64,000 nt of DNA from Candidatus Micrarchaeota archaeon. Its GTDB lineage: Archaea; Micrarchaeota; Micrarchaeia; Anstonellales; Bilamarchaeaceae. The stretch covers positions 308,399 through 372,398 of the forward strand of contig CAZYJW010000002.1 in NCBI GenBank assembly GCA_964647855.1, written 5' to 3'. Below the pieces are notes generated by a model, which saw only the letters and a list, made by a program, of their open reading frames with translations, was not told where the DNA came from and made no database searches. The position numbers were made by a program, and so were the translations under genes. Of this stretch, positions 18,782 through 61,864 are shown one piece after another. The number at the start of each line of letters is the position of its first letter. The first letter of the stretch is position 1.

Positions 18782-18787
18782 CTCGGA

Positions 18788-20852: not shown

Positions 20853-20902
20853 GCGGGGCGGCGCGCCCTGCGCGCATGCCGGAATCCAGGCGGGCCCTGC
20901 AA

Positions 20903-41622: not shown

Positions 41623-42798
41623 ATGCAGGCTTGGCGGGCAGCGCTTACTATAATATTCCTACTCGGAGCCGCGTCTGCCGCCTCGACCGACCTCACCCCG
41701 CTTGTGCCCGCAGTGGCGGTCGTGGTCATGGTGATGCTCGCGATAACCAACATGCTCGCGGTGTCGCTTTCGAATCCGGGCGTCGAGGCGTGGGCGAAGT
41801 CCGAAATCCGGGAGTTCGTGGCTGGCGTAGTGCTGATCGCGCTCGTCATCGGCATGTTCATTGCCTCGGACGGCGTTTCCTTCGCCCTCACTGGCGAGGC
41901 GGACTATGTCGCCAAGTCGCAGGATGTGATAAACGGCTGGGTGGGCAGGCTGATAGCGACATACAAGGACGTAATAGAGGCGGCGCAGAAGATACGCGTG
42001 GCCGCCTCGTACGCCTCCGGCACGAACATCGCGATATGGTTCTTCTCCCTGAGCTACCAGACGTCGCCCCTTTCGGGCGCCGCGCTTTTCCTCGTCCCCC
42101 TGAGCCTCGCCACCCAGGGGCTCACGAACGCCATCTACCTCTGCGAAAGCGTCAAGATGCTGGTCGCCTTCTTCAAGGTGGTGACACCGAAGGTGCTGCT
42201 TCCCATATCGTTCTCAATGCGGCTGATACCCTTCACCAGGAAGACGGGGAACACCCTGATAGCCATATCGCTCGCGACAATCGTCTTCCTGCCGGCCTCG
42301 GTGATTTTCGCCGACTACCTGAACAACGAGATACAGCTTCCGGATGCGCGCATCGACGACCTCGGCGCGCTCGATTCCGACCCCTATCCCATCTACGCCT
42401 TCGGCGCAATCTGCGAGTCCAAGTTCTTCCGCATCCTGTTCTCCATGACCGACCCGCTGTTCGCGCTCATCGTCTGCCTTCCGATAGCATGGATTCCGGG
42501 CGCCTTCCCGGCATGCTTCGACCTGGTCTGGCACGTCGTCTATCCCATAATGAGCATGGTGTTCCAGATAGTCAACGCCATCCTGATGATAACGTGGGAG
42601 GCCGCGGTGAATCCCACATCCTACGGCGAGGACGTCTTCGGCCAGCTCCGGCCCTTCCTCGCGGAGCTGAGCAACCTCGTCATGGTTATTTACCTTGACA
42701 TCGTCTTCATAACGCTGATAACAATCTCCGGCGCGCGGAGCATCTCCGCGGTGATAGGCGGGGACTGGTACATGGCGGGAGTGCAGAGGTTGATATGA
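41623..42798 (+). CDS. Paralog family membrane protein P1 (391 aa)
   Basis: Signal peptide; motifs VEAWAKSEIREF, LLPISFSMRLIPFTRKTGN, C-terminal SAVIGGDWYMAGVQRLI; ATGA overlap with P2. Confidence 0.85.
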   Translation: MQAWRAALTIIFLLGAASAASTDLTPLVPAVAVVVMVMLAITNMLAVSLSNPGVEAWAKSEIREFVAGVVLIALVIGMFIASDGVSFALTGEADYVAKSQDVINGWVGRLIATYKDVIEAAQKIRVAASYASGTNIAIWFFSLSYQTSPLSGAALFLVPLSLATQGLTNAIYLCESVKMLVAFFKVVTPKVLLPISFSMRLIPFTRKTGNTLIAISLATIVFLPASVIFADYLNNEIQLPDARIDDLGALDSDPYPIYAFGAICESKFFRILFSMTDPLFALIVCLPIAWIPGAFPACFDLVWHVVYPIMSMVFQIVNAILMITWEAAVNPTSYGEDVFGQLRPFLAELSNLVMVIYLDIVFITLITISGARSISAVIGGDWYMAGVQRLI

Positions 42799-43775
42799 TG
42801 AGGACGCTCCCCCTCCTTCTGCTTGCTCTCGCGGGCCTCTCCTCCGCAGCCTGCGTCTCGGACGCAACGGCCGTGATAATGTCCGAGCAGGGCATCTTCA
42901 TCGGCGTGGTCATCTCGGTCATGATAGTGGTGATAGCCTTCGCCTACATGTTCGGGACCGCCATGCATTACCCGAACTTCATAGTGTTCGCGAAGGACGA
43001 GGCCTACCACCTCGCGTTCTCTGCCCTCATCCTGGTCTCATTCAGCGGCATCATGGTCTTCTCGTGCCAGATGACCCAGCTCTTCTTCGACGAGACCTTC
43101 AAGAACCTCGGGACAAGCAAGTGCTATTCTGACGGGAAGCTGCCGACCGAGGTCGCGGAATGCTACGTGAACGATGCGAAGAACGACGCCCGCTCGCTCT
43201 CCGAAAGATACATCCAGAAATACATAGACAACATGATGGACTCCACATGGTCCGTCAGCCTGGCGATTCCGCTCTTCACCGCATACACCGCCACGGCGGG
43301 AGCCTACAAGCGCGTGGTGGCCAGCCAGTACAACATGATTTTTTCCACGTTCCTAGTGCCGGCGCTGATGAGCATCAGCATGCAGAAGTTCATGCTCGTC
43401 TTCATCAATGAGAACGTCATACGCTGGATACTCCCCACAGCGCTGCTGCTGCGCTTCTTCCCCCTCACAAGGCACATGGGCAACATATTCATCGCCGTGG
43501 CCATCGCGCTCTACGTGCTCGTCCCGATGCTCTATGCGTTCAACCTTGCCATGTACGACGTCACGTTCAATGACTGCAGCGCATCGGCAGTGGCCGCATG
43601 CGATTTCGTGATTGACGGCGGCTGCAGCCCGCCCCAGAACACCTGCGGCAATCCGGACAGCCTCTGGAACGTGGCGAGGCTCCTGCCGCAGGCGTTCTTC
43701 CTGCCGAACCTTACGATAGCTCTCGTGATAACGTTCCTCGGCTCCATACACAAGGCGTTGAGGGTGATCGGATGA
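42795..43775 (+). CDS. Paralog family membrane protein P2 (326 aa)
   Basis: Signal peptide; FIVFAKDEAYHLA, ILPTALLLRFFPLTRHMGN; ATGA overlap with P3. Confidence 0.85.
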   Translation: MMRTLPLLLLALAGLSSAACVSDATAVIMSEQGIFIGVVISVMIVVIAFAYMFGTAMHYPNFIVFAKDEAYHLAFSALILVSFSGIMVFSCQMTQLFFDETFKNLGTSKCYSDGKLPTEVAECYVNDAKNDARSLSERYIQKYIDNMMDSTWSVSLAIPLFTAYTATAGAYKRVVASQYNMIFSTFLVPALMSISMQKFMLVFINENVIRWILPTALLLRFFPLTRHMGNIFIAVAIALYVLVPMLYAFNLAMYDVTFNDCSASAVAACDFVIDGGCSPPQNTCGNPDSLWNVARLLPQAFFLPNLTIALVITFLGSIHKALRVIG

Positions 43776-45901
43776 ATAAGGCCCTGCTGTTCATTTTCCT
43801 GCTGTGCGGCGCGTTCGCCTACGCCGCCGAGGCGACCGAATCCGAGGAAAGCTTCCAGGAGACCACCTCGGGCTCGAGCGAGGAGCTCTTCCAGGACTGG
43901 CGCCCGCTCTCAATAGCGGCGATAATGACCTCCATCCTGCTGATAGGCATCGCCTACGCAGTCGGCCAGGGGATAGGGATGCCCGAGGTGAAGGCATGGG
44001 CCTCAAACGAGCTCGTGCAGGCCTTCGCGAACGTGGTGATAATAATCTGCCTCATGGCCGCGATAGCCCTCCTGGACGTGCTCGCGGAGGAGATGGTGCA
44101 CGGCAGCGGCCTTGCGATACCCTGCACGGGCGGCCAGAGCTGCCTCGGCGCGGTCGGAGTCCAGTACCTGCAGTCCTACATCGACGCGGCGAGCGACGAC
44201 GCGAAGAGCGTCGCCATAAAGAGCATAGAGGCCGGAGGCTGGGCCGGACGCAGGTTCGGCATCTACTGCACGACCATACTCTGCCTCCAGATAGGCACCA
44301 CCTTCAGCGTGACCGGCTCCTACATTCTAGACCAGGACAGATATTCGCTGATATTCGAGTATTACACCAACCTCCTCGCCTCGCTCGAGGCGCAGAAGTT
44401 CTTCCTCACGAACATCGCGTTCAACATCGGCCCCCTGATGCTCGCGGCGGGCATAGTCGCGCGGTCGTTCTTCTTCACACGCAAGCTCGGCGGCCTCATG
44501 ATAGCGCTCGCGGCGGGCATAATGTTCTTCCTGCCCGGCATGTACGTCTTCAACTGGATAACGCTCGACACCGCCCTCACGGGCGACAAGAACAACGAGG
44601 ACGCAGGCGGCGACCTCTGCCCGCCCGAGTGCGAGACGCCCCACGCCCTTGCGGTCGTGGATGACGGCACGCAGGAGGGCGTCAAGCTCGGCTCCATAAA
44701 GAACGTGTATGACGCCTTCCCCGACTCGGAGGTCCTTATCGCGCAGGGGATAATCGACGGCACAATACCATTCGCATCCCCGGGCGAAGGCGATTATGAG
44801 GACAAGGTCATAACCTCCTGCATGGTCGTTAGCGACGAGGAATGCCCGATGGCGTGCAGGGAACTGCCATACCCCTCGAGCCTCATGCAGTGCATGAACA
44901 TGAGCGCTGACGTGCCGCAGAACTGCGCCAAGCTCCCCGACAAGTGCTGGGTCAGGAGGTTCGCGACCCCGGTGTCGGAGGACAGCATCGAATACGAGCC
45001 GTCGCTCTCAAGCTGCCCGACCGAATGCAAGGTTGTCCCGCCGCTCAAGGGCGACTGCGACACCGGCGACTGCCTGACATCGCGCACCGAGTGCAGGCTC
45101 TACAAGAGGGTGGCGAGCACAGGCGACCCGGACGAGGACTTCGAGTGGTCTCCGAACCCCCCTGACGCCGGGGACGATTCCCAGGCGCGGTGCGAGGATG
45201 CGCAGGACTGCGAGCCGGACTACGACGCCCTCCAGTCGTGCGCATACGTGATTCCGGACACGGGTTCCTGCTCCGAGAAATGCGCCGGATGCCCGGAGTT
45301 CTGCAGGGTGATTACCGAAAACGAGGACAAGCTCTCAAACCAGTGTTTCGATGGGAACGGCTCCGGCAGCCTGCTGTATACATGCAGCCAGTGCCCGGTC
45401 GGGTGCAAAGTCAACGCCACGCACATCGAGGAGGTTGTGGCGGGCATGACCGCCCCGGAGGGCGAGACGCTCCCATGCGACGGATGCGATGCGGAGAAGC
45501 GCATAGTGACATACGGGGAGACCATGCCGGTCGAATATATCTCGGGCTCATGCGACATAAGCACCTGCCCGGTGGAGGACAGGGTCGCGATACCCAGGAA
45601 CTCGTGCGAGCAGTGCCTCTTCAGCGAGGAGTCCGAGATGTACGACCCGCCGATACAGGCCGGATGCGCGGACCTCTGCAAGCCCTCCGACGAGGTGCCC
45701 ATGAAGGGGGCGGACGCCTATACCGGCGTGGGCGGCGAGGGCCTGGTGGGGACCCCGGAGATACAGAACGTTTCCAAGCTGATGCTTCCGGCGTATGTGC
45801 TGCCGCTCTTCGACATAGTTGCGACACTGATATTCATAAAGGGAGTATCGACGATGCTGGGCGGGGACATAGATATCCCGGGAATTTCCAAGGTGTTCTG
45901 A
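43772..45901 (+). CDS. Paralog family membrane protein P3 (709 aa) with ~385-aa Cys-rich ectodomain insertion
   Basis: Signal peptide; VKAWASNELVQAF, IVARSFFFTRKLGG, C-terminal STMLGGDIDIPGISKVF; insertion with 32 Cys (hand count); TGATG overlap with P4. Confidence 0.85.
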   Translation: MNKALLFIFLLCGAFAYAAEATESEESFQETTSGSSEELFQDWRPLSIAAIMTSILLIGIAYAVGQGIGMPEVKAWASNELVQAFANVVIIICLMAAIALLDVLAEEMVHGSGLAIPCTGGQSCLGAVGVQYLQSYIDAASDDAKSVAIKSIEAGGWAGRRFGIYCTTILCLQIGTTFSVTGSYILDQDRYSLIFEYYTNLLASLEAQKFFLTNIAFNIGPLMLAAGIVARSFFFTRKLGGLMIALAAGIMFFLPGMYVFNWITLDTALTGDKNNEDAGGDLCPPECETPHALAVVDDGTQEGVKLGSIKNVYDAFPDSEVLIAQGIIDGTIPFASPGEGDYEDKVITSCMVVSDEECPMACRELPYPSSLMQCMNMSADVPQNCAKLPDKCWVRRFATPVSEDSIEYEPSLSSCPTECKVVPPLKGDCDTGDCLTSRTECRLYKRVASTGDPDEDFEWSPNPPDAGDDSQARCEDAQDCEPDYDALQSCAYVIPDTGSCSEKCAGCPEFCRVITENEDKLSNQCFDGNGSGSLLYTCSQCPVGCKVNATHIEEVVAGMTAPEGETLPCDGCDAEKRIVTYGETMPVEYISGSCDISTCPVEDRVAIPRNSCEQCLFSEESEMYDPPIQAGCADLCKPSDEVPMKGADAYTGVGGEGLVGTPEIQNVSKLMLPAYVLPLFDIVATLIFIKGVSTMLGGDIDIPGISKVF

Positions 45902-46884
45902 TGAAGCCGATTGCCGCCCTCATGCTGATTGCGCTTGCCCCTGCGGCCTTCGCCGCAAGCGGCTGGGAAGGCACCGCGGCGGCCGCGATTATGATATCGG
46001 CGGGCCTGATAGGCGTCCTCTACATGGTAGGGATGGGCTTCGGAGTCAACGAGTTGCAGATTATCGCGAAGGAGGAGTATTATCAGCTTTTCGCGACCGC
46101 CATACTGATAGCCCTGCTCTTCGGCGGGAACAGCCTGATGGACGGCCTCTCGAACGCCTTCGCGGACGGCGGCAGCGCCAACCTGCAGGCGCACGGCATG
46201 GCGATAATCGACGAGACGCTAAGCGGCGGCCCCGACAGCATGACTTCGATATACGACAAGGTAGCCGACCTCGACACGCAGGTGGCGAGCGAGGGCTCGA
46301 AGACGCTCTCATGCAGCATCGTGCAGATAGGCTACACGGTTAGCGCGTGCGGCGGATACTCCATGGTGAACACGCCGCTTTCCATGGCGGGCGGGATTGT
46401 CGGGTTCGCCATCGGAGAGCTGCATTCGATGAAGAGGCTGCTCGCGATTTCGACCGGGTATGCCATGAACCTCCTGCTCCCGATGGGGATACTCCTGCGG
46501 ACCTTCAAGCTCACGAGGGGAGCGGGCGGCTTCCTGATGGCGACCGCGGTCTCGATGCACATCCTGCTCCCGGCGGGCATGGTGTTCAACGACATGCTCG
46601 CGGACACTTTCCTTGCGGATGCCGGCGCCGCGGCATATACCGGCGGCATAGGCTCGATCGTGCCGGAATGCGACCCGGACGCCGTGGTGTTCGACAGCGA
46701 GAGCGGGGCGACCGAGCTCCTCGACAGCCTGCTCGGCGACCTCCGGAAGGTGGTGTTCGGCGTGCTGATACGCGGGACCCTCGGGCCGGTGCTTTCGCTG
46801 CTCATGATGATTGCCGGAATACGCGCGCTAAGCTCGCTCGGAGGCGCCGAGGTCGACGTTAGCGCGCTCGGGAGGTTCGTCTGA
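45901..46884 (+). CDS. Paralog family membrane protein P4 (327 aa)
   Basis: Start trimmed from ORF-track 45190 (upstream part is Arg/Gly-rich off-frame overlap of P3); LQIIAKEEYYQLF, LLPMGILLRTFKLTRGAGG, SSLGGAEVDVSALGRFV. Confidence 0.85.
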   Translation: MKPIAALMLIALAPAAFAASGWEGTAAAAIMISAGLIGVLYMVGMGFGVNELQIIAKEEYYQLFATAILIALLFGGNSLMDGLSNAFADGGSANLQAHGMAIIDETLSGGPDSMTSIYDKVADLDTQVASEGSKTLSCSIVQIGYTVSACGGYSMVNTPLSMAGGIVGFAIGELHSMKRLLAISTGYAMNLLLPMGILLRTFKLTRGAGGFLMATAVSMHILLPAGMVFNDMLADTFLADAGAAAYTGGIGSIVPECDPDAVVFDSESGATELLDSLLGDLRKVVFGVLIRGTLGPVLSLLMMIAGIRALSSLGGAEVDVSALGRFV

Positions 46885-47906
46885 TGGCCGACACGTGCAG
46901 CCTCACCGGATTCGATTCCATAATAGACAACACGGTGCTTCCGCTCGCGCTTGTCGCGAGCTTCACGACCGCCATGGTGATAGCCATCACGTACGTGGTC
47001 AGCCAGGCGATATCGAACCCGAAGCTGAGCCTCTGGGCCAAGACCGAGGCCGTCCAGCTCGCGGTTTCTGCGGGAACGGTTTTCATGCTGATAACCGTCA
47101 TGAACACCTTCTGCACGGTTAAGATGGACGAGGTGGCGTCCCTTTTCGGGCTCACCTCGGCTCCTCTCAGCATCTATGACGCCGCCAACGAGTACCTGGT
47201 CCGCGCGGGCGAGTTCTCCATCAAGGCCCTCCAGGTCAGCAGGTACCACCTCGAGGCCTACAACGTCATGAGCGCCCTCAACGCATTCGAATGCGAGTTC
47301 GGCGGCGGGATAGGGTGCCTTTTCGGCTACTCGGGCACGAACGTCCAGCCCATGGGCGGCTACGGCGCGCACCAGGCGGCGATGAACATATTCTACAACT
47401 CCGCGATAATGTCCGTGATGTCCGCGCTCAATTTCCTCTTCATCCTCAAGTTCGTGTACAAGGGATTCGTGCTGATGTTCCTGCCCCTTGGAATATTCAT
47501 GCGGGCGGTGCCGTATATGAGGACCTTCGGCGGGCTCCTGATAGCCCTCACCCTCGCCTTCCTCATAGTATACCCGCTCCTGCTCTCGGTATTCTACCTC
47601 ATGTCGGACGTCCTGCTTGAGCAGCCGGCCGGTGCGGGCAATTTCATGGACGAGAGCGTCTTCGACGTGGACGACGCCGCAGGGGAGAGCGTCGAGGCAG
47701 CCGTGGCCGGCACGGACGCGGTCTGGGAGAACTACTTCCCGAACGACGACATGCCGCACGTGGCGATTGCCTTCGCGGCATATGCCTTCATAGCCGCGGT
47801 ATTCCTGCCCACGGCCGCCCTGCTCGGGACTATTGGGAGCATCGTCTACCTGACGCGGCTCTACGGCGAGGAGATAGATTTAAGCAGGATAGTTCAAATG
47901 GTGTGA
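46884..47906 (+). CDS. Paralog family membrane protein P5 (340 aa)
   Basis: LSLWAKTEAVQLA, FLPLGIFMRAVPYMRTFGG, LYGEEIDLSRIVQMV; TGATG overlap with P4 stop. Confidence 0.85.
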   Translation: MADTCSLTGFDSIIDNTVLPLALVASFTTAMVIAITYVVSQAISNPKLSLWAKTEAVQLAVSAGTVFMLITVMNTFCTVKMDEVASLFGLTSAPLSIYDAANEYLVRAGEFSIKALQVSRYHLEAYNVMSALNAFECEFGGGIGCLFGYSGTNVQPMGGYGAHQAAMNIFYNSAIMSVMSALNFLFILKFVYKGFVLMFLPLGIFMRAVPYMRTFGGLLIALTLAFLIVYPLLLSVFYLMSDVLLEQPAGAGNFMDESVFDVDDAAGESVEAAVAGTDAVWENYFPNDDMPHVAIAFAAYAFIAAVFLPTAALLGTIGSIVYLTRLYGEEIDLSRIVQMV

Positions 47907-47909
47907 ATT

Positions 47910-48965
47910 ATGGATTTCTTGCTGCCCCTCCTCTCGATAACGGACCTGACGATAAAGAACGACGTCACGTGGCTCAACCACTGGGCGCCGCTCTCGGCGC
48001 TCGCTGTGGCGACGTCGCTCGTCATCCACACCGCCTTCCTCATGGTGGCGAAGGCACTCTCGATAAAGGAGTTCGAGAACTACGCGCTTTCGGAAATCCT
48101 CCAGGCGCTTGCGACGGCGGTGATGATCGGCTTCCTGCTCGTGATGGTGAACAGCGCGCTCGAGCTCGCCCAGACCTACATCGCTGGCGACGTAGTATGC
48201 AACGGAAAGGCGCTCCACATAGGGCTCGGGGACGAGGCGGACTCCGTGATGGACGAGGCCTTCGACGCCATCCGCTGCAGGCTGCAGGAGAAGGCCGACG
48301 TCGTGGCGCAGATACAGCGCGACGTCACCACGAGCACCGAGACCTTCAACTACTTCAACCTCATGAACATCCAGGCCAGCCTGCTCGGAATCACCTTCCT
48401 CAAGGGCGAAGGGTTCAGCGACCTCTACAAGGAGACCGAGACTGTGAGGATAACCAACAACCTCGCCACGGTCATACTGATAGGCCTAAACGCCCAGTCC
48501 TCGGTGCTCCAGTACCTCAAGTACAACGCCCTCACGACGTTCATACCGCTGGGGCTGTTCCTCCGGAGCTTCTTCTTCACAAGGGGCGTGGGGGCGCTGT
48601 TCCTGTCCTTCGGCATCGGCATGTATTTCATATTCCCGGTCTTCTACGTCCTCCTCGACCCCAACTTCATCCCGGCCCCGCCCGTCGCCGAGGGGACCGG
48701 CCAGGCCGACATCCCCCAGCCCTACTGCTACGCCACGATGTCGAGCACGGTCTCGGTCATACAGACCCTCGAGGCCGGGGGGCTCGGCACCACCGCGGTG
48801 CTGAAGAAGGAGAACATCAGGGACGAGCTTTCCAAGTCGTATGTGGAGCTGATGCTCCATCCCCTCGTGGCGTTCTTCCTCACGATGACATTCATAAGGT
48901 ACATGATGACCGTCCTGGGCTCGGACTCGTACGAGCTCGTGCGCATGGTCAGCAAAGTGGTTTGA
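47910..48965 (+). CDS. Paralog family membrane protein P6 (351 aa)
   Basis: FENYALSEILQAL, FIPLGLFLRSFFFTRGVGA, VLGSDSYELVRMVSKVV; next gene starts at the nucleotide after its stop. Confidence 0.85.
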   Translation: MDFLLPLLSITDLTIKNDVTWLNHWAPLSALAVATSLVIHTAFLMVAKALSIKEFENYALSEILQALATAVMIGFLLVMVNSALELAQTYIAGDVVCNGKALHIGLGDEADSVMDEAFDAIRCRLQEKADVVAQIQRDVTTSTETFNYFNLMNIQASLLGITFLKGEGFSDLYKETETVRITNNLATVILIGLNAQSSVLQYLKYNALTTFIPLGLFLRSFFFTRGVGALFLSFGIGMYFIFPVFYVLLDPNFIPAPPVAEGTGQADIPQPYCYATMSSTVSVIQTLEAGGLGTTAVLKKENIRDELSKSYVELMLHPLVAFFLTMTFIRYMMTVLGSDSYELVRMVSKVV

Positions 48966-51900
48966 ATGAACAGACAACTCGCCGCCCTGGCAATTTTGGC
49001 CGTCATCCTTTCGGGCTGCCTCCAGCCCGCGACGAAGCTCGGATGCTGCCTCAAGGAGAACGCGACCGACAGGGACGGCTGCGTGCTCTACAACGACAGC
49101 TCCGACCAGATACTCGACTGGACCGGGAAGACGAACCTCGAGGCGGACGGCCAGAAGTGCAATGTCACCGGCAACTACTGCAACGTCACGTTCGACGACG
49201 ACCAGCCGGGCTACCTGATACCGGTATGCACCGAGGCGGACATTCTCTCGTGCAGGCAGCCGGACTGCCTCGCGATGGTCTGCGGCGACTTCAAGTTCAA
49301 GCCGCCGGTCGCCCCGGGCATCACCGCCGAGGGCGACGACGTGAAGACCGACGTGCCGGCGGACACCCAGGAGGAGTCCGCCATGCAGTTCTTCCACGCC
49401 CAGTGCAGGTTCCTCCCGATGGACGGCAAGCTCAAGAAGATAATGAAGAGCTCGAAGTCCACCATAAACGTTTTCAGGTGGGGCGTGGGCAACTCATTCG
49501 ACGAATACGAGCAGTACAGGTACTATTTCCCGATGTCCGACAAGTTCTGCGCGGTGAATCCGCCCCGCGAGAACGAGCTTCGCGTGGACAGGTACATGAA
49601 CTACCTCAATCCGACCACGAAGGCCGCCTGGGACCCCATCGCGGGCATAACATCGAACTGCATCGAGGACGACGCCAGCGCTCCGCCCCCTTTCAGCTAC
49701 GACGAAAGCGGCAGGGGTGTCACGACCGGCACGTTCACGGGAATCGGGGGCGGCGTCAGCTACAGCTATTTCGGGGTGACGAAGGACAAGAGCAACTACA
49801 AGTTCGCGCACTGGGGGCGCGTGGATTATGGCGAGGTCGAAGAGTCGTATTTCACCGGGTATTCCCTCGCTTCGCCCTTCTTCAGCTCCTTCAGCGTCTA
49901 CAAGAAGATAGACAACTCATACTACAAGAAATGGCTGTCCATTACGTCCGCCTCGACCATCTACGGCCTCAGCACGACGCTCACGAACACCACCCGCGCG
50001 CCTTTCGAGTGCGACCTTTCGAGCATAGACTGCTATTCGGGCATCTGCTCCACCACCACCTACAACCGCGTGGTGATGCTCACGCCACCCAATTCCAACG
50101 GCGTGCAGGAGGAGGTCGTGACTGACTGCGAGAGCTACACGGACGAGAACCTCATAACCAAGCTCGTCTGCGCGCCGACAAAGAGCGTCACGATAACCGG
50201 GCCGAACACGGCGCCAACGAGGACGTATGCCAAGATAGACGCGAGGGTCGTCCATGTGGACGGACTGAGCAGGTTCGAGAGCGTGAACGCGGCCTGCGGG
50301 ATATTCGATAGCCAGCACCTCGACAAGTTCGTGGACTGGGAATACATGGGGGGCTGGGGATACGGCGCTCCGTGGGACGACGTGCAGTGCCCGAACGTCA
50401 TGTCGAGCAACTTCTTCACCGCTGCCCAGGCCAAGTTCGACGTGGGGCAGATAACCAACACCGCGACGGGCTACATGACATACTTCAACGGGACCGACGG
50501 GCTCTGGTACAACCAGTTCCAGGAGGCGTCCGCGGGCCCGCCGGCCGGAGGGGCGCTGTTCTTCGGATACACCGACCCCGAGGCTTCATACGGAGGCAAG
50601 ACGGTGATAGGCTACGCCCTCGCTACGCAGGACGAGGTCGACGACCTTCTTGTCGTGAAGAACTGCGAGATGGTCTCCGGCGTGGATTATGAGATTGTTT
50701 CGGTGCCAGACGACCTCACCCAGTGGGGCGCGCTCAAGAACGCCTTCACGGGATATTTCAGGCAGAGGTATTCGGGCATGAAGGCGGTAAGCACCGGCGA
50801 CAGCTGCGGCGCGGTGTCCTGCACGCTCTATGAGGACGCGCCCCAGATGGCGTGCGCCTACTTCCCTGACTTCTTCTTCGCCGGTCTTCCGTGGGTGGTC
50901 ACGATGGACAAGCAGGCCCACCCGAACTACTGGGGGGGGAACCCGACACAGGGCATCCTTCTTAACAACGAGATACAGATGGGCACGAGGAAGATCAACA
51001 GGTTCAGCGAGAACATGGTGATAACCGGCGGGGCGGACACATGCACCCTCAGGAGGATGCACTCCGGATGGTATTCCACCGCCTCCAGGGAATCCGACGA
51101 CACCAACTACTACATCTGGCTCACCTACCAGAAGCCCACCTACGACCTCCTCTACAGCAAGAAAATCGCCCTGTTTTACGACGACGGGGACGGCATGATA
51201 GGCAAATGCGCGATAGACGGCTCCACGGGCCTGCCCCAGGTCAGGACGTTCGGCTGGTGCGAGCCGTGCACGACGTCCACTATCGCCTACCAGTTCATAT
51301 CGACGCGCGGTGAGGGGCTCTACATGCCGGCGGCGATAGCGGAGATAGAGGGCGGCGGAAACGCTGATGTGACCGCGCTCGAGAAGAGGGTATGCACGGC
51401 AACCGGGGGCGAGATACAGTGCGCCAACAACCTGATAACTTCGGCAAACGATTTTAGCATCGGGGACGGGGAGGTGCCGCTGAATCCCAGGACCTACCCC
51501 GAGGCTTCGGTCCTCAAGGAGAGGCTGGGCAACTACATGAAATCGGGCGTCCTGCCGGTGCTGGACCTGAGCGTCGATGACAACTGGGTGGCGGACGAGG
51601 AGACCGGGAACGTCTGGGAACTGCTCTTCGGGGACGACGGCGGGGACGGCTCCGCGCCCGCCGAGTACGACTTCCAGCGCCTTGTCGGCAACATGGGCGC
51701 GGCGGTGGTCATCGTGGAGCGGGTTGACAACGAGACTGACGCGGAGGCCAAGGCGCAGAACATCAGCGACAGGAGCTCCGCGGTGAGGAGCCGCTGCTAC
51801 GGCTGCCTGACCGCCTTCCATGTCAATTCGCCGGAGAGCAATACCAGCTTCCACGACACGGCCCATGCCGTGTTCTCCACGAACTTCGCGAGCAAGTTCA

Positions 51901-52955
51901 CGGTCGACATGGTCACCTTCGACTATCCCATATCGGACCATACCGGCATGCTGCCCGCGATGGGAAGCGCAATCCTCGCGCAGGACCCCTCCGCCAACCT
52001 CACGTACAACTACAGCCAGATAATCGCGGATGACATAGCAAGCTATTCCAGGGGCATCCTCAAGGCCGAGAACAAGCCCACGATGCTCGTCGGGCTCAAT
52101 CTCGACAGCGACGACTCTGTGATGACCGCGTCCAGGTACAAGGCGCTCTTCGACGCCATCGCGCTAAACCAGGATGATTACGTGAAGGCGGGCCTGATAG
52201 GCATAATATACTCTCCGGCCAGGCAGCAGACGATACTGACATTCGAGATGGACGAGGTCGGAATCGTCGACATGGAATTCGAAGATGACGACATCTTCGG
52301 CCTGAATGGCTATGGCGTCAAGAACGACAAGTTCTGCGCGCTCCAGGGCGCGATGCAGAAGCTCACCGCCGCCCCTCCCGTGGCTGTCTATGTGCGCAGC
52401 AACGCGGTGAACGACAGCGAGTGCATACCCTGCCTCAGCCTCGAGAAGTCCCAGGGCCAGTGCGACGCAGACGCCCTGATGTGCGACAACGGAATCCACT
52501 GCACCCCTCCCGGCGGCCTCAGCCTGTCCGATATCGAGGGCGCCTTCAGGTGCCAGCCCGAAACGATTGTGGACGACCCCGCGGGCGAGCGCTGCACCCT
52601 GTGCAAGGACATCCCCGGCACATACACCTGCACGTTCAGGTACGCGAACGGCTCCATAGAGACGCAGAGCGGGAGCATGGCGGTTCTCGAATCGGACGCA
52701 TACCTCGACATCCTTGCGGGCATCGAGCGCCCCTACAAGTGCTGCCTGGCCGACAGCTACGACCAGAGGCATTCCTATGTAAAGAGGTCCTCGGAGTCCC
52801 TCGTCAACGTGCCCATAGCCTTCTCCAAGACCGGGGACGAGGAGGTCGACTGCGGCATGAGCAGCAGCATCGGCGCGATTACCGAGGCCCAGGAGTTCTG
52901 CAACGTCGAAATCCCGATAAGGAATTACGATGTGACATGCACGATAAGTGGTTGA
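48966..52955 (+). CDS. Giant (1329 aa) Cys-rich, aromatic-rich lipoprotein-like exoprotein
   Basis: Signal peptide with lipobox-like AVILSGC; many Cys and N-x-S/T sequons; no further TM; GC3 bias; no family recognised. Confidence 0.85.
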   Translation: MNRQLAALAILAVILSGCLQPATKLGCCLKENATDRDGCVLYNDSSDQILDWTGKTNLEADGQKCNVTGNYCNVTFDDDQPGYLIPVCTEADILSCRQPDCLAMVCGDFKFKPPVAPGITAEGDDVKTDVPADTQEESAMQFFHAQCRFLPMDGKLKKIMKSSKSTINVFRWGVGNSFDEYEQYRYYFPMSDKFCAVNPPRENELRVDRYMNYLNPTTKAAWDPIAGITSNCIEDDASAPPPFSYDESGRGVTTGTFTGIGGGVSYSYFGVTKDKSNYKFAHWGRVDYGEVEESYFTGYSLASPFFSSFSVYKKIDNSYYKKWLSITSASTIYGLSTTLTNTTRAPFECDLSSIDCYSGICSTTTYNRVVMLTPPNSNGVQEEVVTDCESYTDENLITKLVCAPTKSVTITGPNTAPTRTYAKIDARVVHVDGLSRFESVNAACGIFDSQHLDKFVDWEYMGGWGYGAPWDDVQCPNVMSSNFFTAAQAKFDVGQITNTATGYMTYFNGTDGLWYNQFQEASAGPPAGGALFFGYTDPEASYGGKTVIGYALATQDEVDDLLVVKNCEMVSGVDYEIVSVPDDLTQWGALKNAFTGYFRQRYSGMKAVSTGDSCGAVSCTLYEDAPQMACAYFPDFFFAGLPWVVTMDKQAHPNYWGGNPTQGILLNNEIQMGTRKINRFSENMVITGGADTCTLRRMHSGWYSTASRESDDTNYYIWLTYQKPTYDLLYSKKIALFYDDGDGMIGKCAIDGSTGLPQVRTFGWCEPCTTSTIAYQFISTRGEGLYMPAAIAEIEGGGNADVTALEKRVCTATGGEIQCANNLITSANDFSIGDGEVPLNPRTYPEASVLKERLGNYMKSGVLPVLDLSVDDNWVADEETGNVWELLFGDDGGDGSAPAEYDFQRLVGNMGAAVVIVERVDNETDAEAKAQNISDRSSAVRSRCYGCLTAFHVNSPESNTSFHDTAHAVFSTNFASKFTVDMVTFDYPISDHTGMLPAMGSAILAQDPSANLTYNYSQIIADDIASYSRGILKAENKPTMLVGLNLDSDDSVMTASRYKALFDAIALNQDDYVKAGLIGIIYSPARQQTILTFEMDEVGIVDMEFEDDDIFGLNGYGVKNDKFCALQGAMQKLTAAPPVAVYVRSNAVNDSECIPCLSLEKSQGQCDADALMCDNGIHCTPPGGLSLSDIEGAFRCQPETIVDDPAGERCTLCKDIPGTYTCTFRYANGSIETQSGSMAVLESDAYLDILAGIERPYKCCLADSYDQRHSYVKRSSESLVNVPIAFSKTGDEEVDCGMSSSIGAITEAQEFCNVEIPIRNYDVTCTISG

Positions 52956-52956
52956 C

Positions 52957-53301
52957 ATGGGGCTTGGCGACCTGATTGGGAACATGCTCAAGGGCAAATC
53001 CGGCGGGGCGTCCGGCAGGAAGGGGCAGGCCCAGGCGTGCCCGAACTGCGGGGAGAAGGTCAACCTGAGCATGGAGCGCTGCCCCAAATGCGGCGTGCGC
53101 ATAAAAAGCATGTTCAGGCGCAAATGCCCCAGGTGCCAGGGCCTTGTCGAGCTGGACGCGAAGAAGTGCCCCAAGTGCTTCTACAGCTTCGAGGCGGAAT
53201 TGGAAAGGGCTAATAAAACCTTTTATGTATGTCCAATATGCGGGTTCAAGATGGAGGCGTTGCTGACGCGCTGCCCCGCGTGCAACACCCGATTCATGTG
53301 A
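52957..53301 (+). CDS. Triple zinc-ribbon protein (114 aa)
   Basis: CPNC..CPKC / CPRC..CPKC / CPIC..CPAC, three CxxC-N(10-14)-CxxC units; ATG is 2 nt after the giant ORF stop. Confidence 0.7.
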   Translation: MGLGDLIGNMLKGKSGGASGRKGQAQACPNCGEKVNLSMERCPKCGVRIKSMFRRKCPRCQGLVELDAKKCPKCFYSFEAELERANKTFYVCPICGFKMEALLTRCPACNTRFM

Positions 53302-53305: not shown

Positions 53306-53875
53306 ATGACTTCAGAATCCTTCAAGCAGGCCGAGAAAAAGCCCGAAATCGAGGCTCCGAAAAAGAAGTTCATCCATCTCCTCGACGAGGAGGAGGTCGA
53401 GATAAAGAAGCTCGACTCGGAGGACATCGAGGACTGCGTCAAGGTCATGCGCAAGTGCGCCTTCGACGTCACGGAGGTCGAGGTCGGGAACATCGTCGCC
53501 TACGGCAAGAGCTTCGGGGCGACCGTGAACAGGATGCTAGTCGGCGTTGGGCTCGCGTGGCCCGCTAAGCTCGACCTCGAGAGCAAGAGGATAACGAGCG
53601 GCGAGGCGAACGCGCTCTATATGGAGGACCCCGCGGTCCTGCTCGCCTACGAGGGCAGGGGCGTGCGCCGCATCCTGCTAGCCGAGAGGGAGAAGGAGGC
53701 CGTCCGCTCCAGCCTAAGGTATTCCATAGGATACCTCTACGAGGACATACCCAAGGGCGACATCGCGAGCTACATCACTGAGGCGGGAAGCGCCCTCGAG
53801 AAGCTGTATCTGTCCGAGGACTACCAGTTCTTCCGCACGGAGAAGGGAATCCTCGCCTTCAAGAAAATCTCCTAG
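53306..53875 (+). CDS. GNAT-like acetyltransferase-fold protein (189 aa), tentative
   Basis: LAYEGRGVRRILLAE resembles GNAT motif A (Q/R-x-x-G-x-G/A); last gene of the coupled operon. Confidence 0.4.
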   Translation: MTSESFKQAEKKPEIEAPKKKFIHLLDEEEVEIKKLDSEDIEDCVKVMRKCAFDVTEVEVGNIVAYGKSFGATVNRMLVGVGLAWPAKLDLESKRITSGEANALYMEDPAVLLAYEGRGVRRILLAEREKEAVRSSLRYSIGYLYEDIPKGDIASYITEAGSALEKLYLSEDYQFFRTEKGILAFKKIS

Positions 53876-54671: not shown

Positions 54672-56450
54672 ATGAGGCTTCCCGCAATCCTACTGCTCGC
54701 CATGGCGCTCTGCGCCGCGGCCTGCACGGGCTCGATATCGCAGAGCGTCCCGGCGGTCGTAGGCGACGGCGGAAACCTCGTCAACGTGAGCATGGCGCTC
54801 GGGGAGGGCGACGGGACTGTGTTCGTGAGCGTGGCGCCCGCGACAGGCGTCGCCACGCAGGAGTCGATTTACGACGCGGTCGCCTACGCCTGGATGCTCG
54901 CGGGCAGGGATGGGCCGTGCGACGTCATGGTCAGTTTCGCCGGCAACCCCTCCACATCGTACATCGACGGACCGAGCGCCGGCGCGGCGCTCACCGTGAT
55001 GGCGTATTCGCTCCTCGAGAACCGGACGATGAGGAACGACACGATAATAACGGGGACCATAGAGCCCGACGGAACCATCGGGCCGGTCGGAGGCCTCTAC
55101 GAGAAGGCCCGGGGCGCCTCGGACGCGGGGGCCGCGTATTTCATCACCCCCGTGGAGACGTTCTATGAGATCCTCCTTCTCCGCGAAATCGGGGAATCGC
55201 ACGGAATCAGAATCGTCCAGGCGGCGAGCGTGGAGGACGTCATCCGGTTCATGCTGGATGGCAGCGAGATACCCCAGTCGCAGTTCGAAATACGCGAGAG
55301 GGGAGTGCCGGACGTCCCGCAGTATTACGACCCCGGGCTTGCCGGGTTCGGCCCCGTGGCCCAGCGCATGATAAGCCTCGAAAGGGGGCTTGCGGACGCC
55401 GTGGGGGCGGATGGCAACGAAACGCTCGCGATAAAATCCTTCTACTATTCGGAAGCCGCCAGGCAGGAGGCCATGCTCGGACTGGGCTACGCGTTCAGCG
55501 CGGCCAACGAGGCGTTCCTAAACTATATCGACCTGCTCACGATAGAAGCCGTGGGGAAGGGGGAATTGGACCTTCCCCGGGCCAAGGGGGGCGCCGGAAT
55601 ATGCCTGGGAAACGTGCGAAGGCCGGCGATGACGGACCTGAATTGGGAGTGGGTGGCAGGCGCGGACCAGAGGCTCGGCTGGGCGCAGGAGAAGCTGGAC
55701 AACACCGAAACCGAAGGCGAGATGCTCGAGGACGAGAGGATATACGCGTTCAACCAACTCATGTACGCAAGGGCATGGTGCGAGGTGGCAGGCGCGCTGG
55801 CTGCCGGGGCGCCTGAGGGGGGCAGGGAAATCAACGAGAGCGCCTGGGAGCCGTTCGCAAGGGAGAGGATAGAGGGGGCGAGGGCGCTCGGGGAGCTCGA
55901 CGAGGACTACACGGCGCGCCTCAATATCGCCCAGGCAAGGTATTCCGCGGGCCGCTACGCGGCGGCGGTTTTCGACGCCACCTATGTGATAGAGACATCC
56001 GGGGACGAGCCTCCCCCCGGCGATGCGAACGTTTCGGAGCTGGTGGGCGAAAGCCGCTCCTCGCTCTGGGGGAAGGTCTACCAGTCGCACGCCGCGTTCC
56101 TGAATGCCCAGAACCTCACTTCGGCTGCCTACGAGACCGCCCGCTTCGCCCGGGCCCTCGACGACGCCACGCTGCGCATGGTTGACGAGGGGGAATATGC
56201 CGATGGGGGCGGTGAGGATGAGCCGCTTGCGGAAGGCAGGTCGCTGGACCCGGACTGGCCGGGGCAGGCGGGATGGTGGCCCGTTGCATTGGCCGCATGC
56301 GCATCGATGTTTTTATTCCTTGCCCTGCTATTATTACTCACAAGGCGAAAACATGGAAATGACCGCACGGGACCTCTCAAGGCTGATAGAGCTGAAGAAA
56401 AAGAGGGCGGAGCTCGAGTTCCAGGAAAGGGTGCTCGGCGCAAAGGCTGA
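54672..56450 (+). CDS. Secreted/membrane-anchored Lon-like S16 serine peptidase domain protein (592 aa)
   Basis: Signal peptide with LCAAAC; YIDGPSAGAALTV...ITGTIEPDGTIGPVGGLYEKARGA (Lon_C pattern); C-terminal TM VALAACASMFLFLALLLLL. Confidence 0.7.
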   Translation: MRLPAILLLAMALCAAACTGSISQSVPAVVGDGGNLVNVSMALGEGDGTVFVSVAPATGVATQESIYDAVAYAWMLAGRDGPCDVMVSFAGNPSTSYIDGPSAGAALTVMAYSLLENRTMRNDTIITGTIEPDGTIGPVGGLYEKARGASDAGAAYFITPVETFYEILLLREIGESHGIRIVQAASVEDVIRFMLDGSEIPQSQFEIRERGVPDVPQYYDPGLAGFGPVAQRMISLERGLADAVGADGNETLAIKSFYYSEAARQEAMLGLGYAFSAANEAFLNYIDLLTIEAVGKGELDLPRAKGGAGICLGNVRRPAMTDLNWEWVAGADQRLGWAQEKLDNTETEGEMLEDERIYAFNQLMYARAWCEVAGALAAGAPEGGREINESAWEPFARERIEGARALGELDEDYTARLNIAQARYSAGRYAAAVFDATYVIETSGDEPPPGDANVSELVGESRSSLWGKVYQSHAAFLNAQNLTSAAYETARFARALDDATLRMVDEGEYADGGGEDEPLAEGRSLDPDWPGQAGWWPVALAACASMFLFLALLLLLTRRKHGNDRTGPLKADRAEEKEGGARVPGKGARRKG

Positions 56451-58727: not shown

Positions 58728-59534
58728 TTAATTGAACAGGTTCGAGAGGAGGCCGGCGAGCGAATAGACCGGAGCCTGGAAGATGGGGAACACCAGCGCG
58801 CCGCTGTTCGTGGCCTTGTAGTCGCCAAGGAGGCCGGAGCGGATGAAGAGCGTGACGTTCTCCGAAGCGTTGATGTTCCTGCTCGCGAGCGAGACGACTC
58901 CTATGGTGGTGCGGTATGCCTCCTCCTCGTCACCTACTATCTCATAATAGACCGAGCGGGTGGACTGCGCGGGGACATAGACGGGCTTGACGAACTCCCA
59001 GCGCTTCGCGCCCGTGGCGCTCACCTGGAAGGCGTCGCCGGTTGAGCCCTTGTTGGTTATCGATATCTTGAACCTGGCGGGCTGGCCGGGGCCAACTGAC
59101 CGGTAGTTCGGCGACACGTCGAAATCCATGATGTCGTAGGTTATCCTCGCCTTAGCGAGGAATGTCACGTTCCCGAGCCGTTCCCCGTCGTTCTCGTCAA
59201 CTACGGTGACGCGCACCGAATAGTTGCCTTCGGCGGCGTCCGGGTCGGCCGTTATCGTAACCATCAGCGGGTCCTGGTAAAGCTTGCTGTCGGCCGACGT
59301 CCAGCCGCGTGGCAGCTCGCCGACGACCGCCTGGTCGTATATGCCGCCCTCGCCGTGGATGCCGCCGGTCCTTGCTTTCGGGTCTATCTGTATGTAGACG
59401 GTCTGGCCCGGGCCCATCGTCCCGAGGTCGACGACATCGTTGTTCCCCACGCCCCGTATTGCGGGCGACACCAGGTCCACGGCGAAGCCGAGCGACAGCA
59501 CAACCATGAGGGCGAGCGATATCCTGCCGAGCAT
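58728..59534 (-). CDS. Secreted beta-sandwich (CARDB/Ig-like) repeat protein with C-terminal hydrophobic segment (268 aa)
   Basis: Start trimmed from ORF-track 60866 (the upstream part is Arg/Gly/Pro-rich and overlaps the HerA-like gene off-frame); signal-anchor ISLALMVVLSLGF; PGQPARFKISITNKGSTGDAFQVSA typical CARDB-like strand pattern. Confidence 0.65.
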   Translation of the reverse strand: MLGRISLALMVVLSLGFAVDLVSPAIRGVGNNDVVDLGTMGPGQTVYIQIDPKARTGGIHGEGGIYDQAVVGELPRGWTSADSKLYQDPLMVTITADPDAAEGNYSVRVTVVDENDGERLGNVTFLAKARITYDIMDFDVSPNYRSVGPGQPARFKISITNKGSTGDAFQVSATGAKRWEFVKPVYVPAQSTRSVYYEIVGDEEEAYRTTIGVVSLASRNINASENVTLFIRSGLLGDYKATNSGALVFPIFQAPVYSLAGLLSNLFN

Positions 59535-59602: not shown

Positions 59603-61117
59603 TCAGATGAACGCCTCGACGTCCTTCGACCTGCGTTCCTCCCGCTCCTCGAACTCCTTCGCCTGCACATGCAGCGGCGCGCCCTTCTCCCTCTTCACGG
59701 ACCTGCGGTCTCGCACCCTGAGGAACACCGGGGAGTTCACGGCCTCGCCGACCACTATCGCCTCCCCGACCCGAAGTCCCGTGATGCTCTTCGCGACGCG
59801 GGAGTCTATGCCCTCCGAGCTCATCTGGATGTGGTCCAGGTCGTTCGGGTTGGTGACGCGCATTATGATGTGGGTGTTGCACTGGCTCAGGGCAGTGGTG
59901 CTGAGGTTGACCGGGCGCTGGCTGACAAGGCAGAGCGAGGCGCCGAACTTGCGGCCCTCCCTCGCGATGGTCTCTATTATCGCCCGGCTGACCGCCTCGC
60001 CCTCCTCCGCTTTCTCCCTGGCGAAGTTGTGCGCCTCCTCTATGAGCAGCATGAAGGGCGGGATTCTGCCCTTCTTGCGCAGGGAGAAAAGCCTGCGGGC
60101 CGTCAGGGACACTAGAATCTGCTTCTTCCTCAGCGAGTCGATCGTCGAGAAGTCCAGGACGAGCATGCGCCCGGGCCGGACCTCTGCGGCGAGCCTGGGG
60201 TTCTCGGCCTTGCGCGAAAGGAAGCGGTGGCGCCTGAGCTCGGAGAGGCTGCGCTTGAGGGCGCGCTTCACCTCGTCCTTGGAGACGTCGGCGGCGTCGA
60301 TGGCCGCGACAAGCTCGCCGAAGGAATAGCCGTCCGCGCCCTTCTTTTTTTCGCGCAGAGACACAACAGCGTGGCGAAGCACGTCGCGCTGGGGCGCGGA
60401 AAGGTGCGGCAGCCACCCCATCATGGCCTCGGCGCCCACCTTGCGCAGGGGGATTGATATGTCGCCCCCTTCCACGACCGTGACGCTTTTTCCGAAAGCC
60501 GGGTCGTGCGCGAACCCGCCGTATTCTCCGTGGATGTCTATGACCACCACCGCGACGCGCCCGTCGCCCTTGCTCCGCGAAAGAAGCTCCTCGAGGAGGA
60601 CGCAGGCGAGATGCGACTTGCCGGCGCCGCTCATTGCGAGGATTGCGAGGTGCTTCTGTAGCAGGCGCGTCATGGATATCCGTGCCGGGACGTCGTGGTG
60701 CTCGATCTGGCCCAGATGGAGGCCGGATTCTTCGAATCCCAGGAACGCCCTGAGGATTGCTGGGTCGGCGTCGGAAACCTCCGCCCCCGGGGAGGGCGGC
60801 GCGAACGCGCGGGCGAACCCGCCGCCGGAAAAGACGCCGAGTATGCGGACGGACGCCACCGTGCATTCCCAGGATGCCGAGGGGAAGCTGGCCGAGACGC
60901 CCTCGCCGCGGCCGAAATCGGCAACGGTCTCCGCGCGCTCGAAGTAGCGGTTCGACTTGAAAAGCTCGGTCACGAGGCCGAAGAGCGCGCCGCCGCCGTG
61001 CGGAATCTGGACGTACTGCCCCTTGCTTGCGCGGCCGCCGCCCACGACGAATGAGAATTCCGAGGTCGAAGGCGATTCATCGGCCGCAATCACCGTGCCA
61101 AGAGCCGAACCTCCCAT
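59603..61117 (-). CDS. HerA/DUF87-family (FtsK-HerA superfamily) ATPase
   Basis: Walker A AILAMSGAGKSH, Walker B MLLIEEAHNF, N-terminal HAS-barrel-like segment, VSQRPVNLS motif. Confidence 0.8.
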   Translation of the reverse strand: MGGSALGTVIAADESPSTSEFSFVVGGGRASKGQYVQIPHGGGALFGLVTELFKSNRYFERAETVADFGRGEGVSASFPSASWECTVASVRILGVFSGGGFARAFAPPSPGAEVSDADPAILRAFLGFEESGLHLGQIEHHDVPARISMTRLLQKHLAILAMSGAGKSHLACVLLEELLSRSKGDGRVAVVVIDIHGEYGGFAHDPAFGKSVTVVEGGDISIPLRKVGAEAMMGWLPHLSAPQRDVLRHAVVSLREKKKGADGYSFGELVAAIDAADVSKDEVKRALKRSLSELRRHRFLSRKAENPRLAAEVRPGRMLVLDFSTIDSLRKKQILVSLTARRLFSLRKKGRIPPFMLLIEEAHNFAREKAEEGEAVSRAIIETIAREGRKFGASLCLVSQRPVNLSTTALSQCNTHIIMRVTNPNDLDHIQMSSEGIDSRVAKSITGLRVGEAIVVGEAVNSPVFLRVRDRRSVKREKGAPLHVQAKEFEEREERRSKDVEAFI

Positions 61118-61153: not shown

Positions 61154-61864
61154 CTAGCGCTTCATGGCTTTTAGCAGCACGAAAGCGACCACAAGCCCCC
61201 CGATTAGGAGCGCGGCGGCGCCTGCCGCGAGCGCGAGCATCGCGACATCGTATTCCCTTGAGCGGACCACTATGAATTTGCCCTCCGACATGAGGCTTAC
61301 GATATCGTACTCCGCCCGCATCCGCCCGCCCTCGCCCGCAACCATCTCGCCGTTCTCGGCGCTGATGATTTCCCCTGGCATCTCGACCGAGTATTTGACC
61401 GAGGCGCCGGCCGCCCTCAGCGTGTTGGCGGCCATCCTGGCCGAGGGGCTCTCGAAGTCCGAATCAAGCGCATCGGCGGATGCCGAGGTCATCGAAGAGG
61501 ACTCGACGAACTGGGGCACCCGGTGTATCTCAAGGGTATAGATGGCATACGGGAATTCCGAGGTCCGGTTGAACAGGTAGCCCCCCTCGGCGGCGCTGAT
61601 GCGCTTGGAGAGCGTCACTATGCCGCCTTCTGCGGTGCAGTTGAGGCCGGGCTCCTGCGCCGTGAGGTTCGCGCATGCTCCGGACAGGTCGCTCTCCCCG
61701 AGGGAATACTCCCCGCCCGCCGAAAGCAGGGCGCTCAGGTCCATGGTCTCGGTTATCACGGAGTCCCCGTTGCGCTCCACCTTCTGGGTGAATTCCAGCG
61801 ATATGCAGCCGGATAGCATGAGCGCGAGCAGCCCGGTTAGCAGCAGCGGTTGGCGGATGTGCAT
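61154..61864 (-). CDS. Lipoprotein-like exported protein with C-terminal TM anchor (236 aa)
   Basis: Start trimmed to ATG 61864 (MHIRQPLLLTGLLALMLSGC lipobox-like); C-terminal AMLALAAGAAALLIGGLVVAFVLL. Confidence 0.6.
   Translation of the reverse strand: MHIRQPLLLTGLLALMLSGCISLEFTQKVERNGDSVITETMDLSALLSAGGEYSLGESDLSGACANLTAQEPGLNCTAEGGIVTLSKRISAAEGGYLFNRTSEFPYAIYTLEIHRVPQFVESSSMTSASADALDSDFESPSARMAANTLRAAGASVKYSVEMPGEIISAENGEMVAGEGGRMRAEYDIVSLMSEGKFIVVRSREYDVAMLALAAGAAALLIGGLVVAFVLLKAMKR

Follow-up and report, generated by a model that had tools for sequence, protein, structure and literature searches.

Micrarchaeota are host-dependent episymbionts (PMC8975820, PMC11329633), and the surface apparatus described for them so far comprises only a surface-layer (S-layer) protein and host-derived nanotubes (bioRxiv 10.1101/2021.04.28.441871; PMC11329633). 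The S-layer protein, Micr_00292 (SLP_Mh), has a mass of 101 kDa, shows similarity to PF05123, contains almost no sulfur-containing residues and is reported to have homologues across the phylum (Gfrerer et al., bioRxiv 10.1101/2021.04.28.441871). In Ca. Micrarchaeum harzensis, the pseudo-periplasm has a width of 20-25 nm (bioRxiv 10.1101/2021.04.28.441871). Predicted lipoproteins and AliA (arCOG02177) are reported to be prevalent in DPANN archaea, AliA with some gaps (PMC12462473). The subject of the present analysis is a 1329-residue protein, referred to below as the giant, that is encoded directly after six tandem membrane-protein paralogs in a 64,000-nucleotide stretch of a Candidatus Micrarchaeota genome (contig CAZYJW010000002.1, positions 308,399 to 372,398; the whole stretch is called the window). 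With roughly even confidence, the giant is read as a lipid-anchored, disulfide-stapled outer subunit of a Micrarchaeota-specific eight-gene envelope module, with a barrel domain that would bind rather than hydrolyse glycan.

In the N-terminus of the giant, MNRQLAALAILAVILSGC, a single basic residue and a hydrophobic core are combined with the residues L15-S16-G17-C18, and this segment was assigned as a Sec-type signal peptide with a lipobox. The L-S-G-C sequence matches the lipobox [L/V/I][A/S/T/V/I][G/A/S]C of the archaeal AliA/AliB lipoproteins (Haloferax volcanii; PMC12462473). In an alignment of 47 giant sequences, G17 and C18 were invariant, and a motif of the form [hydrophobic]-x-[GA]-C was found within the first 50 residues of 115 of the 139 full-length family members. 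The Kyte-Doolittle mean exceeded 1.6 only in residues 1-25, and the giant therefore has no second predicted transmembrane segment. Both a lipobox signal peptide and the lack of any other transmembrane segment had been proposed by an earlier, sequence-only reading of this DNA, and both were borne out. Cys18 is postulated to be lipid-modified by an AliA-type pathway. Most of the archaeal lipoproteins characterised are small solute-binding proteins, and many depend on Tat, whereas the giant is a Sec-type protein of 145 kDa with 46 further Cys residues.

These cysteines set the giant apart in composition. Its 47 Cys residues amount to 3.5%, compared with 1.35% for the other open reading frames (ORFs) of the window on a crude gene map, and the corresponding values were 5.0% and 2.79% for Tyr, 1.3% and 0.73% for Trp, and 4.9% and 2.42% for Asn. 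The closely spaced pairs noticed previously (GCCLKE, CEPC, CYGC, CIPC and CTLC) are all present in the giant, and its description as rich in Cys and aromatic residues holds. Besides C18, approximately 40 Cys residues were invariant in the 47-sequence alignment, together with structural Gly, Pro and aromatic residues. The Cys counts among the homologues were 41, 43, 45, 47, 49, 51, 53, 59, 61, 73 and 77, with two even exceptions. Across the 115 lipobox-bearing full-length members, where counts ranged from 38 to 157, the number was odd in 91 (79%); the nominal binomial p of 2e-10 for this excess is no true probability, as the sequences are related. Odd parity fits a single unpaired lipobox Cys, with the remaining Cys being gained or lost pairwise, and the pairs could be disulfides or paired ligands. 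As read from the sequence, none of the four CxxC motifs (in CEPCT, CYGCL, CIPCL and CTLCK) is followed by the His of a multihaem cytochrome, and no ferredoxin-type spacing indicative of an Fe-S protein was seen.

The giant contains 13 N-x-S/T sequons against approximately 9.4 expected from its composition, and the raw count is therefore unremarkable. The earlier remark on their abundance thus carries little by number and gains by position, since five of the sites are conserved: N32 in 38/47 sequences, N43 in 44/47, N73 in 45/47, N959 in 31/47 and N1228 in 46/47. This positional conservation supports an extracytoplasmic, N-glycosylated protein.

The ATG of the giant (48966-48968) abuts the TGA of the sixth paralog, P6 (48963-48965), as had been noted from the sequence, and the downstream gene begins at 52957, 1 nt past the giant's TGA. 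Along the fixed gene order of paralogs and giant, stop and start codons adjoin or overlap. An identical 1329-aa giant was carried by nine contigs from different samples, and at least 96% of its sampled words were found in twenty DNA runs originating from anaerobic digesters, biogas fermenters, bioreactors, sludge and soil. The homologues share the length of the giant and the order of its conserved blocks, being co-linear over the whole length, and its GC content at third codon positions (GC3) of 0.86 is similar to that of the neighbouring genes. A fusion introduced by assembly or gene calling, or a spurious ORF in GC-rich DNA, was also considered, as the window has a GC content of 60-69% and long spurious ORFs are frequent on its other frames. 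However, the separate contigs and DNA runs, the neighbour-like GC3 and more than 200 homologue representatives with E values down to 0 leave this explanation with a negligible probability, and it was regarded as already refuted. The assembly fusion that the sequence-only reading had reckoned with was accordingly not encountered. Short exact pieces of the operon were present in three sludge libraries labelled as RNA-Seq and in one metatranscriptome; one piece crosses the P6/giant junction (48953-49144) and another lies inside the giant (52675-52921). They are weakly compatible with co-transcription of the operon.

A word-seeded search returned 46 homologues of the giant with lengths of 1262-1762 aa and identities of 31-63%. 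The named ones belonged to metagenome-assembled genomes (MAGs) of Candidatus Micrarchaeota, Micrarchaeia or Bilamarchaeum and were annotated as 'hypothetical protein'. An exhaustive phmmer search of 1.84 billion cluster representatives yielded 217 proteins at E<=1e-3, mostly of 1100-1900 aa, and the weaker matches that bear names were all from Micrarchaeota or Bilamarchaeaceae. When one genome per GTDB species was scanned, 39 giant loci were found, the named ones being from Micrarchaeota, Micrarchaeia, Bilamarchaeum and Iainarchaeum. A profile word search seeded with distant members found nothing outside the phylum and no homologue from a cultivated strain. The family is restricted to the DPANN phylum Micrarchaeota, with every named match assigned to Micrarchaeota, Iainarchaeum or Bilamarchaeum.

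The association of the giant with the six paralogs was examined with a hidden Markov model built from 25 paralog sequences and searched against all plus-strand ORFs of all loci. Exactly six paralogs preceded the giant in 33/33 of the GTDB loci with enough upstream DNA, and the last paralog match reached the giant start or stopped no more than a few tens of bases from it; the proposed tie between the giant and the paralogs is thereby upheld. Around four homologues with 33-40% identity, the gene order was a divergent gene of ~1200-1400 aa, the six paralogs (~395, 332, ~700, 327, 355 and 341 aa), the giant, a zinc-ribbon protein and a protein of ~190 aa, followed by a PP-loop ATPase on the opposite strand and then an exported Lon_C protease. 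In locus L008, which represents a second copy found in one MAG, only the giant, the six paralogs and the divergent gene are kept. As these eight genes are retained despite a different downstream region, they were taken to form the core of the module. The layout of six paralogs plus giant is the same in a relative with 27% identity (L009). There, a 2469-aa ORF (14124-21533, +) with no Pfam match on record comes after the giant, and two of the paralogs are enlarged, with lengths of 1143 and 683 aa. Each of the MAGs JAKEGJ01 (L015, L029) and JBNLBN01 (L020, L036) harboured two complete sets of six paralogs plus giant; the copies lie on different contigs with different downstream contexts and represent either a true duplication or mixed strains.

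Within the module, the giant is the least conserved component, with 35-41% identity to three orthologues compared with 39-53% for the paralogs. In the same comparison, Elp3 showed 58-61% and the 189-aa protein ~70% identity. The fastest evolution in the module is as expected for an exposed part.

Pfam gave no match for the other proteins of the core module (the six paralogs and the divergent 1164-aa protein), and the paralog profile searched against PDB sequences returned only a chance match to tubulin at E 1.5. An identity of the paralogs as TrbL/VirB6 (PF04610) or MCE proteins was rejected at the sequence level, with no such match for 25 paralogs searched against Pfam at E<=1, and the Pfam and PDB sequence searches gave no link to Ced-type proteins either. 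When the giant was compared by BLASTP with the Cys-rich loop of paralog 3 and with the 1164-aa protein, the E values (0.78 and 1.0) were at chance level, and homology to either was discarded. The nearest described arrangements are analogies of context: Mce operons, with six Mce paralogs, and the tandem VirB6 arrays of the Rickettsiales type IV secretion systems (PMC7648143) also hold non-redundant paralogs in fixed order, six in number in the former. By this analogy, the paralogs may assemble in the membrane as a hetero-oligomer that has large extracytoplasmic portions. In contrast to the Mce and VirB6 systems, the module has no ATPase or pilin gene inside it, and the giant has no counterpart there.

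No curated family covered the giant when it was searched against Pfam and NCBIfam (E<=1) and PHROGs (E<=0.1), and the family profile built from 47 sequences found no match among all PDB chain sequences at E<=10. Structure models were then consulted. The first Cys-rich region was modelled with a predicted local distance difference test score (pLDDT) of 75-85 for aa 29-88 and below 50 after approximately aa 111. The best-conserved stretch, aa 141-200, is kept even in the most distant matches to the giant and yet is the worst-modelled part (pLDDT 36-58). Such high conservation combined with poor modelling fits a segment that folds against a partner, and aa 141-200 may be a partner interface. For the model of aa 19-820, Foldseek gave no significant match (best E 0.46 in the PDB and 0.05 in BFVD, which holds viral predicted structures). 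Alignment of six giant segments all against all with hhalign gave probabilities of <=1% for internal repeats, and an internal duplication was rejected on this basis.

For the C-terminal part, the AlphaFold2 (AF2) model of aa 800-1329 had a mean pLDDT of 82.8 and showed a regular alternation of strands and helices over aa ~847-1146. With this barrel model, Foldseek returned 38 PDB matches at E<=1e-3, all of which were glycosidases of clan GH-A or Kemp eliminases on a GH10 scaffold. The best match was the glycoside hydrolase family 53 (GH53) beta-1,4-galactanase 6gpa (E 1.2e-5), and others included GH10 xylanases (5xzo, 1e0x), GH5 mannanases, the GH79 heparanase and GH51, with the eight-stranded barrel being shared over ~300-350 columns. 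The statement that no domain could be assigned by eye has thus been overtaken, as the segment models as a (beta/alpha)8 barrel of the clan GH-A type. Structure prediction, which had been suggested as a check, succeeded for this barrel and left aa 19-820 without recognisable fold relatives. Strong homology to an enzyme family unrelated to the surface was not found; the likeness of the barrel is at the level of fold and is to extracellular glycan enzymes. Judged from the model, this fold-level likeness would not make the giant a member of clan GH-A, and it was not filed as one.

In enzymes of clan GH-A, strand 4 ends with an Asn-Glu pair whose Glu is the acid/base, and strand 7 with a Glu that serves as the nucleophile. 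In the giant, strand 4 instead ends in T-F-D986-Y987 and strand 7 (aa 1116-1119) ends in Lys1119. No acid/base Glu was found where strand 4 ends, Tyr987 being present there in 47/47 aligned sequences and in 80/102 members, and strand 7 likewise showed no nucleophile Glu at its end, where Lys1119 was present in 41/47 and 67/94. Neither the 47-sequence alignment nor the 102 members showed an invariant Glu anywhere in the barrel. Two residues, a His close to where strand 3 ends and a Tyr that closes strand 6, seem to recall the GH-A pattern, namely the residues conserved in GH5 and GH10. Both the clan GH-A enzymes and, by prediction, the giant are extracellular. The barrel is only one domain of a 1329-aa lipoprotein, however, the other ~1000 residues of which have no known relatives.

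An active, non-canonical surface glycosidase or glycan-processing enzyme is a possible but rather improbable alternative, in which an Asp-based barrel would cut host, environmental or the cell's own S-layer glycans and the paralogs would take up the products. It would account for clan GH-A barrels being the sole significant fold matches, for the predicted extracellular location and for a cluster of polar residues at the C-terminal ends of the strands (D867, D/E918, H952, D986, Y987, N1045, Y1082 and R1086). However, only D867, at the end of strand 1, is near-invariant among the acids (89/94). Position 918 at the end of strand 2 is D/E in 67/102 members and G, A, N or S in ~27%, and position 986 at the end of strand 4 is D/E in 72/102 and S, N, K or G in ~20%. 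In addition, the expected nucleophile position is Lys, the glycosidase models of Pfam and NCBIfam were unmatched even at E<=1, and the family profile had no PDB sequence match. With the two catalytic Glu residues missing and the strand-end acids only partly conserved, a binding or scaffold function is likelier than canonical hydrolysis. The catalytically inactive TIM-barrel lectins, for instance GH18-derived chi-lectins like YKL-40, offer a functional analogy only, in that a glycosidase barrel without its catalytic acids could bind glycan. They belong to a different GH clan and show no homology to the giant, and glycan binding by its barrel is proposed by analogy.

The giant had also been put forward as a candidate adhesin or as structural cargo. 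On that account, a free-standing protein, either released or displayed alone, would attach to host cells and rely on the six paralogs as machinery for its export or display. The giant is large, exported, Cys-rich and sequon-bearing and evolves faster than its neighbours, its insertion hot spots (near aa 290, 470, 570, 650 and 810) suggest variable surface loops, and the episymbiotic lifestyle of Micrarchaeota (PMC8975820, PMC11329633) would suit such a role. However, the invariant lipobox argues for tethering rather than release. Neither tandem repeats (by the same hhalign comparison) nor the Pfam domains of repeat-built adhesins (Ig-like, cadherin, beta-helix) were found, and when the model of aa 19-820 was compared with the PDB by Foldseek, the adhesin folds SraP and SdrD appeared only at E >1. 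The Sec signal peptide explains export, so that no dedicated six-protein exporter is needed. The adhesin proposal is therefore unsupported. As for cargo, the membrane tether, the fixed gene order and the translational coupling to the paralogs across the phylum make the giant look like a subunit rather than a substrate. Taken as a whole, the adhesin or cargo explanation was considered unlikely.

A role as an S-layer protein, or as a membrane-anchoring stalk of the S-layer, was judged very unlikely. SLP_Mh and the giant come from the same phylum, and both are large, acidic surface proteins that are exported and predicted to be N-glycosylated. The giant (pI 4.4) is furthermore membrane-tethered and universal in the phylum, and the pseudo-periplasm width of 20-25 nm (bioRxiv 10.1101/2021.04.28.441871) also counts in favour of such a role. 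The known protein differs, however: SLP_Mh shows likeness to PF05123 and is nearly devoid of Cys and Met, and the giant has neither property. On the grounds of no PF05123 match in Pfam and a Cys content of 3.5%, compared with the SLP_Mh of Gfrerer et al., the giant was rejected as the Micrarchaeota S-layer protein. Fixed coupling to six membrane paralogs is also not a feature of S-layers.

For the lipid-anchored subunit favoured here, the following arrangement is proposed. Cys18 would be lipidated after export, leaving a mature protein of ~1310 residues tethered outside the cytoplasmic membrane and beneath the S-layer. The remaining 46 Cys would form ~23 pairs, mostly disulfides, that staple a multidomain, N-glycosylated ectodomain. 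This ectodomain would sit in the pseudo-periplasm and dock on a hetero-oligomer of the six paralogs, with aa 141-200 as the probable interface, and the barrel would act as a glycan-binding domain (a lectin-like pseudo-glycosidase) or as a scaffold. Candidate roles for the whole complex are host contact, uptake or envelope building. A more specific version, held to be unlikely, postulates a portal that spans the envelope, consists of a hetero-hexamer of the six paralogs and is capped on the outside by the giant, which would recognise glycan. Such a machine would be unique to Micrarchaeota and would enable these genome-reduced episymbionts to dock on host cells and acquire lipids or metabolites. 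Host specificity would then be determined by the fast-evolving, disulfide-stapled ectodomain and its insertion hot spots, and aa 141-200 would plug into the membrane ring.

Several points weigh against the lipid-anchored, glycan-binding subunit. Lipidation, disulfides, glycosylation and complex formation are all predictions, and gene adjacency is no proof of a stoichiometric complex. The organism comes from anaerobic digesters and sludge, where extracellular disulfides are less expected, and some of the Cys residues could be metal ligands. The matches of the barrel are only generic, with template modelling scores of ~0.45-0.5 on the target and root-mean-square deviations of 7-8 Å, and the strand ends and 'missing glutamates' were placed from DSSP strings and alignment columns rather than by superposition. 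The 95% conservation of D867 leaves room for a non-canonical, Asp-based active site. The evidence for transcription is thin, as the RNA pieces are read-sized contigs with a depth of ~2 and DNA carry-over is possible.

Table 1. Positions of the giant, its domains, the module genes and other features in the window
Feature	Positions	Strand	Remarks
Giant	48966-52955	+	1329 aa, 145 kDa, pI 4.4
Sec-type signal peptide with lipobox L-S-G-C18 (predicted)	48966-49019	+	Cys18 codon 49017-49019
N-terminal Cys-rich region, aa 19-130 (KLGCCLK..., CNVT, PNCTAMVCGDFKFKP)	49020-49355	+	conserved sequons N32, N43, N73
Best-conserved stretch, aa 141-200 (QF.HAQCRFLPMD...INVFR.GVG.SFDEYEQYRYYFP)	49386-49565	+	column identity 0.81-0.85
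Beta-rich N-terminal half, aa 19-820	49020-51425	+	AF2 model m94d5f0060baf, pLDDT 76.4, predicted template modelling score (pTM) 0.73
(beta/alpha)8 barrel, aa ~847-1146	51504-52403	+	AF2 model m3a4bae50fa39, eight strands, pLDDT 88-97
C-terminal Cys-rich alpha/beta domain, aa 1147-1329 (CIPC, CTLC, KCC; N1228)	52404-52952	+	pLDDT ~85-95 for most
Six tandem paralogous polytopic membrane-protein genes	41623-48965	+	41623-42798, 42795-43775, 43772-45901, 45901-46884, 46884-47906, 47910-48965
Divergent 1164-aa signal-peptide/transmembrane protein	38026-41520	-	in L001, L004-L008; no Pfam match
Triple zinc-ribbon protein	52957-53301	+	Pfam DZR 1.7e-12; L001-L007, absent from L008
189-aa protein	53306-53875	+	L001-L007, absent from L008
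Lon_C (S16) protease-domain protein	54672-56450	+	without AAA+ module
268-aa protein	58728-59534	-	flanks HerA-type ATPase
DUF87 + HAS-barrel (HerA-type) ATPase	59603-61117	-	
236-aa protein	61154-61864	-	flanks HerA-type ATPase; LALMLSGC lipobox
3031-aa ORF	48-9143	+	GC3 0.80, coding-like; Cys only 0.1%
Cys-rich ORF, 388 aa	24205-25371	-	8.0% Cys, hydrophobic N-terminus
Cys-rich ORF, 446 aa	35112-36452	+	3.8% Cys

Beyond the module, a few other features of the window were recorded (Table 1). The gene for the Lon_C protease-domain protein is conserved a short way downstream of the module in L001-L007, and its 3' end is overlapped by the next gene. In L001, L004, L005 and L007, the trio formed by the HerA-type ATPase and its two flanking proteins was located ~6 kb downstream of the module, and it was not so placed in L006 or L008. 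ARAGORN and Rfam at gathering thresholds detected no tRNA in the window, including at 36497-36650, where a tRNA-Ser with two introns had been proposed, and the Rfam scan of the window matched no RNA family.

The lipobox and the barrel fold are known types of part, and the whole protein and its system, as far as sequence comparison reaches, appear to match nothing described. A full-text search of the published literature found no description of the giant family or of the module, and neither is represented by a curated model.

The means by which DPANN archaea hold on to their hosts and obtain resources from them are an open question on which the module may bear. As the largest exposed component of a phylum-invariant module, the giant is a candidate for a Micrarchaeota surface apparatus, and in the few members of the phylum in cultivation it provides a concrete target for antibodies, labelling in cryo-electron tomography, proteomics and tests of glycan binding. 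Approximately 800 of its residues are confidently modelled in a fold that is unmatched, and the barrel may represent a new lineage of catalytically silent GH-A-like barrels. Even with no more than a housekeeping role in the envelope, the giant would still serve to define a marker family specific to the phylum.

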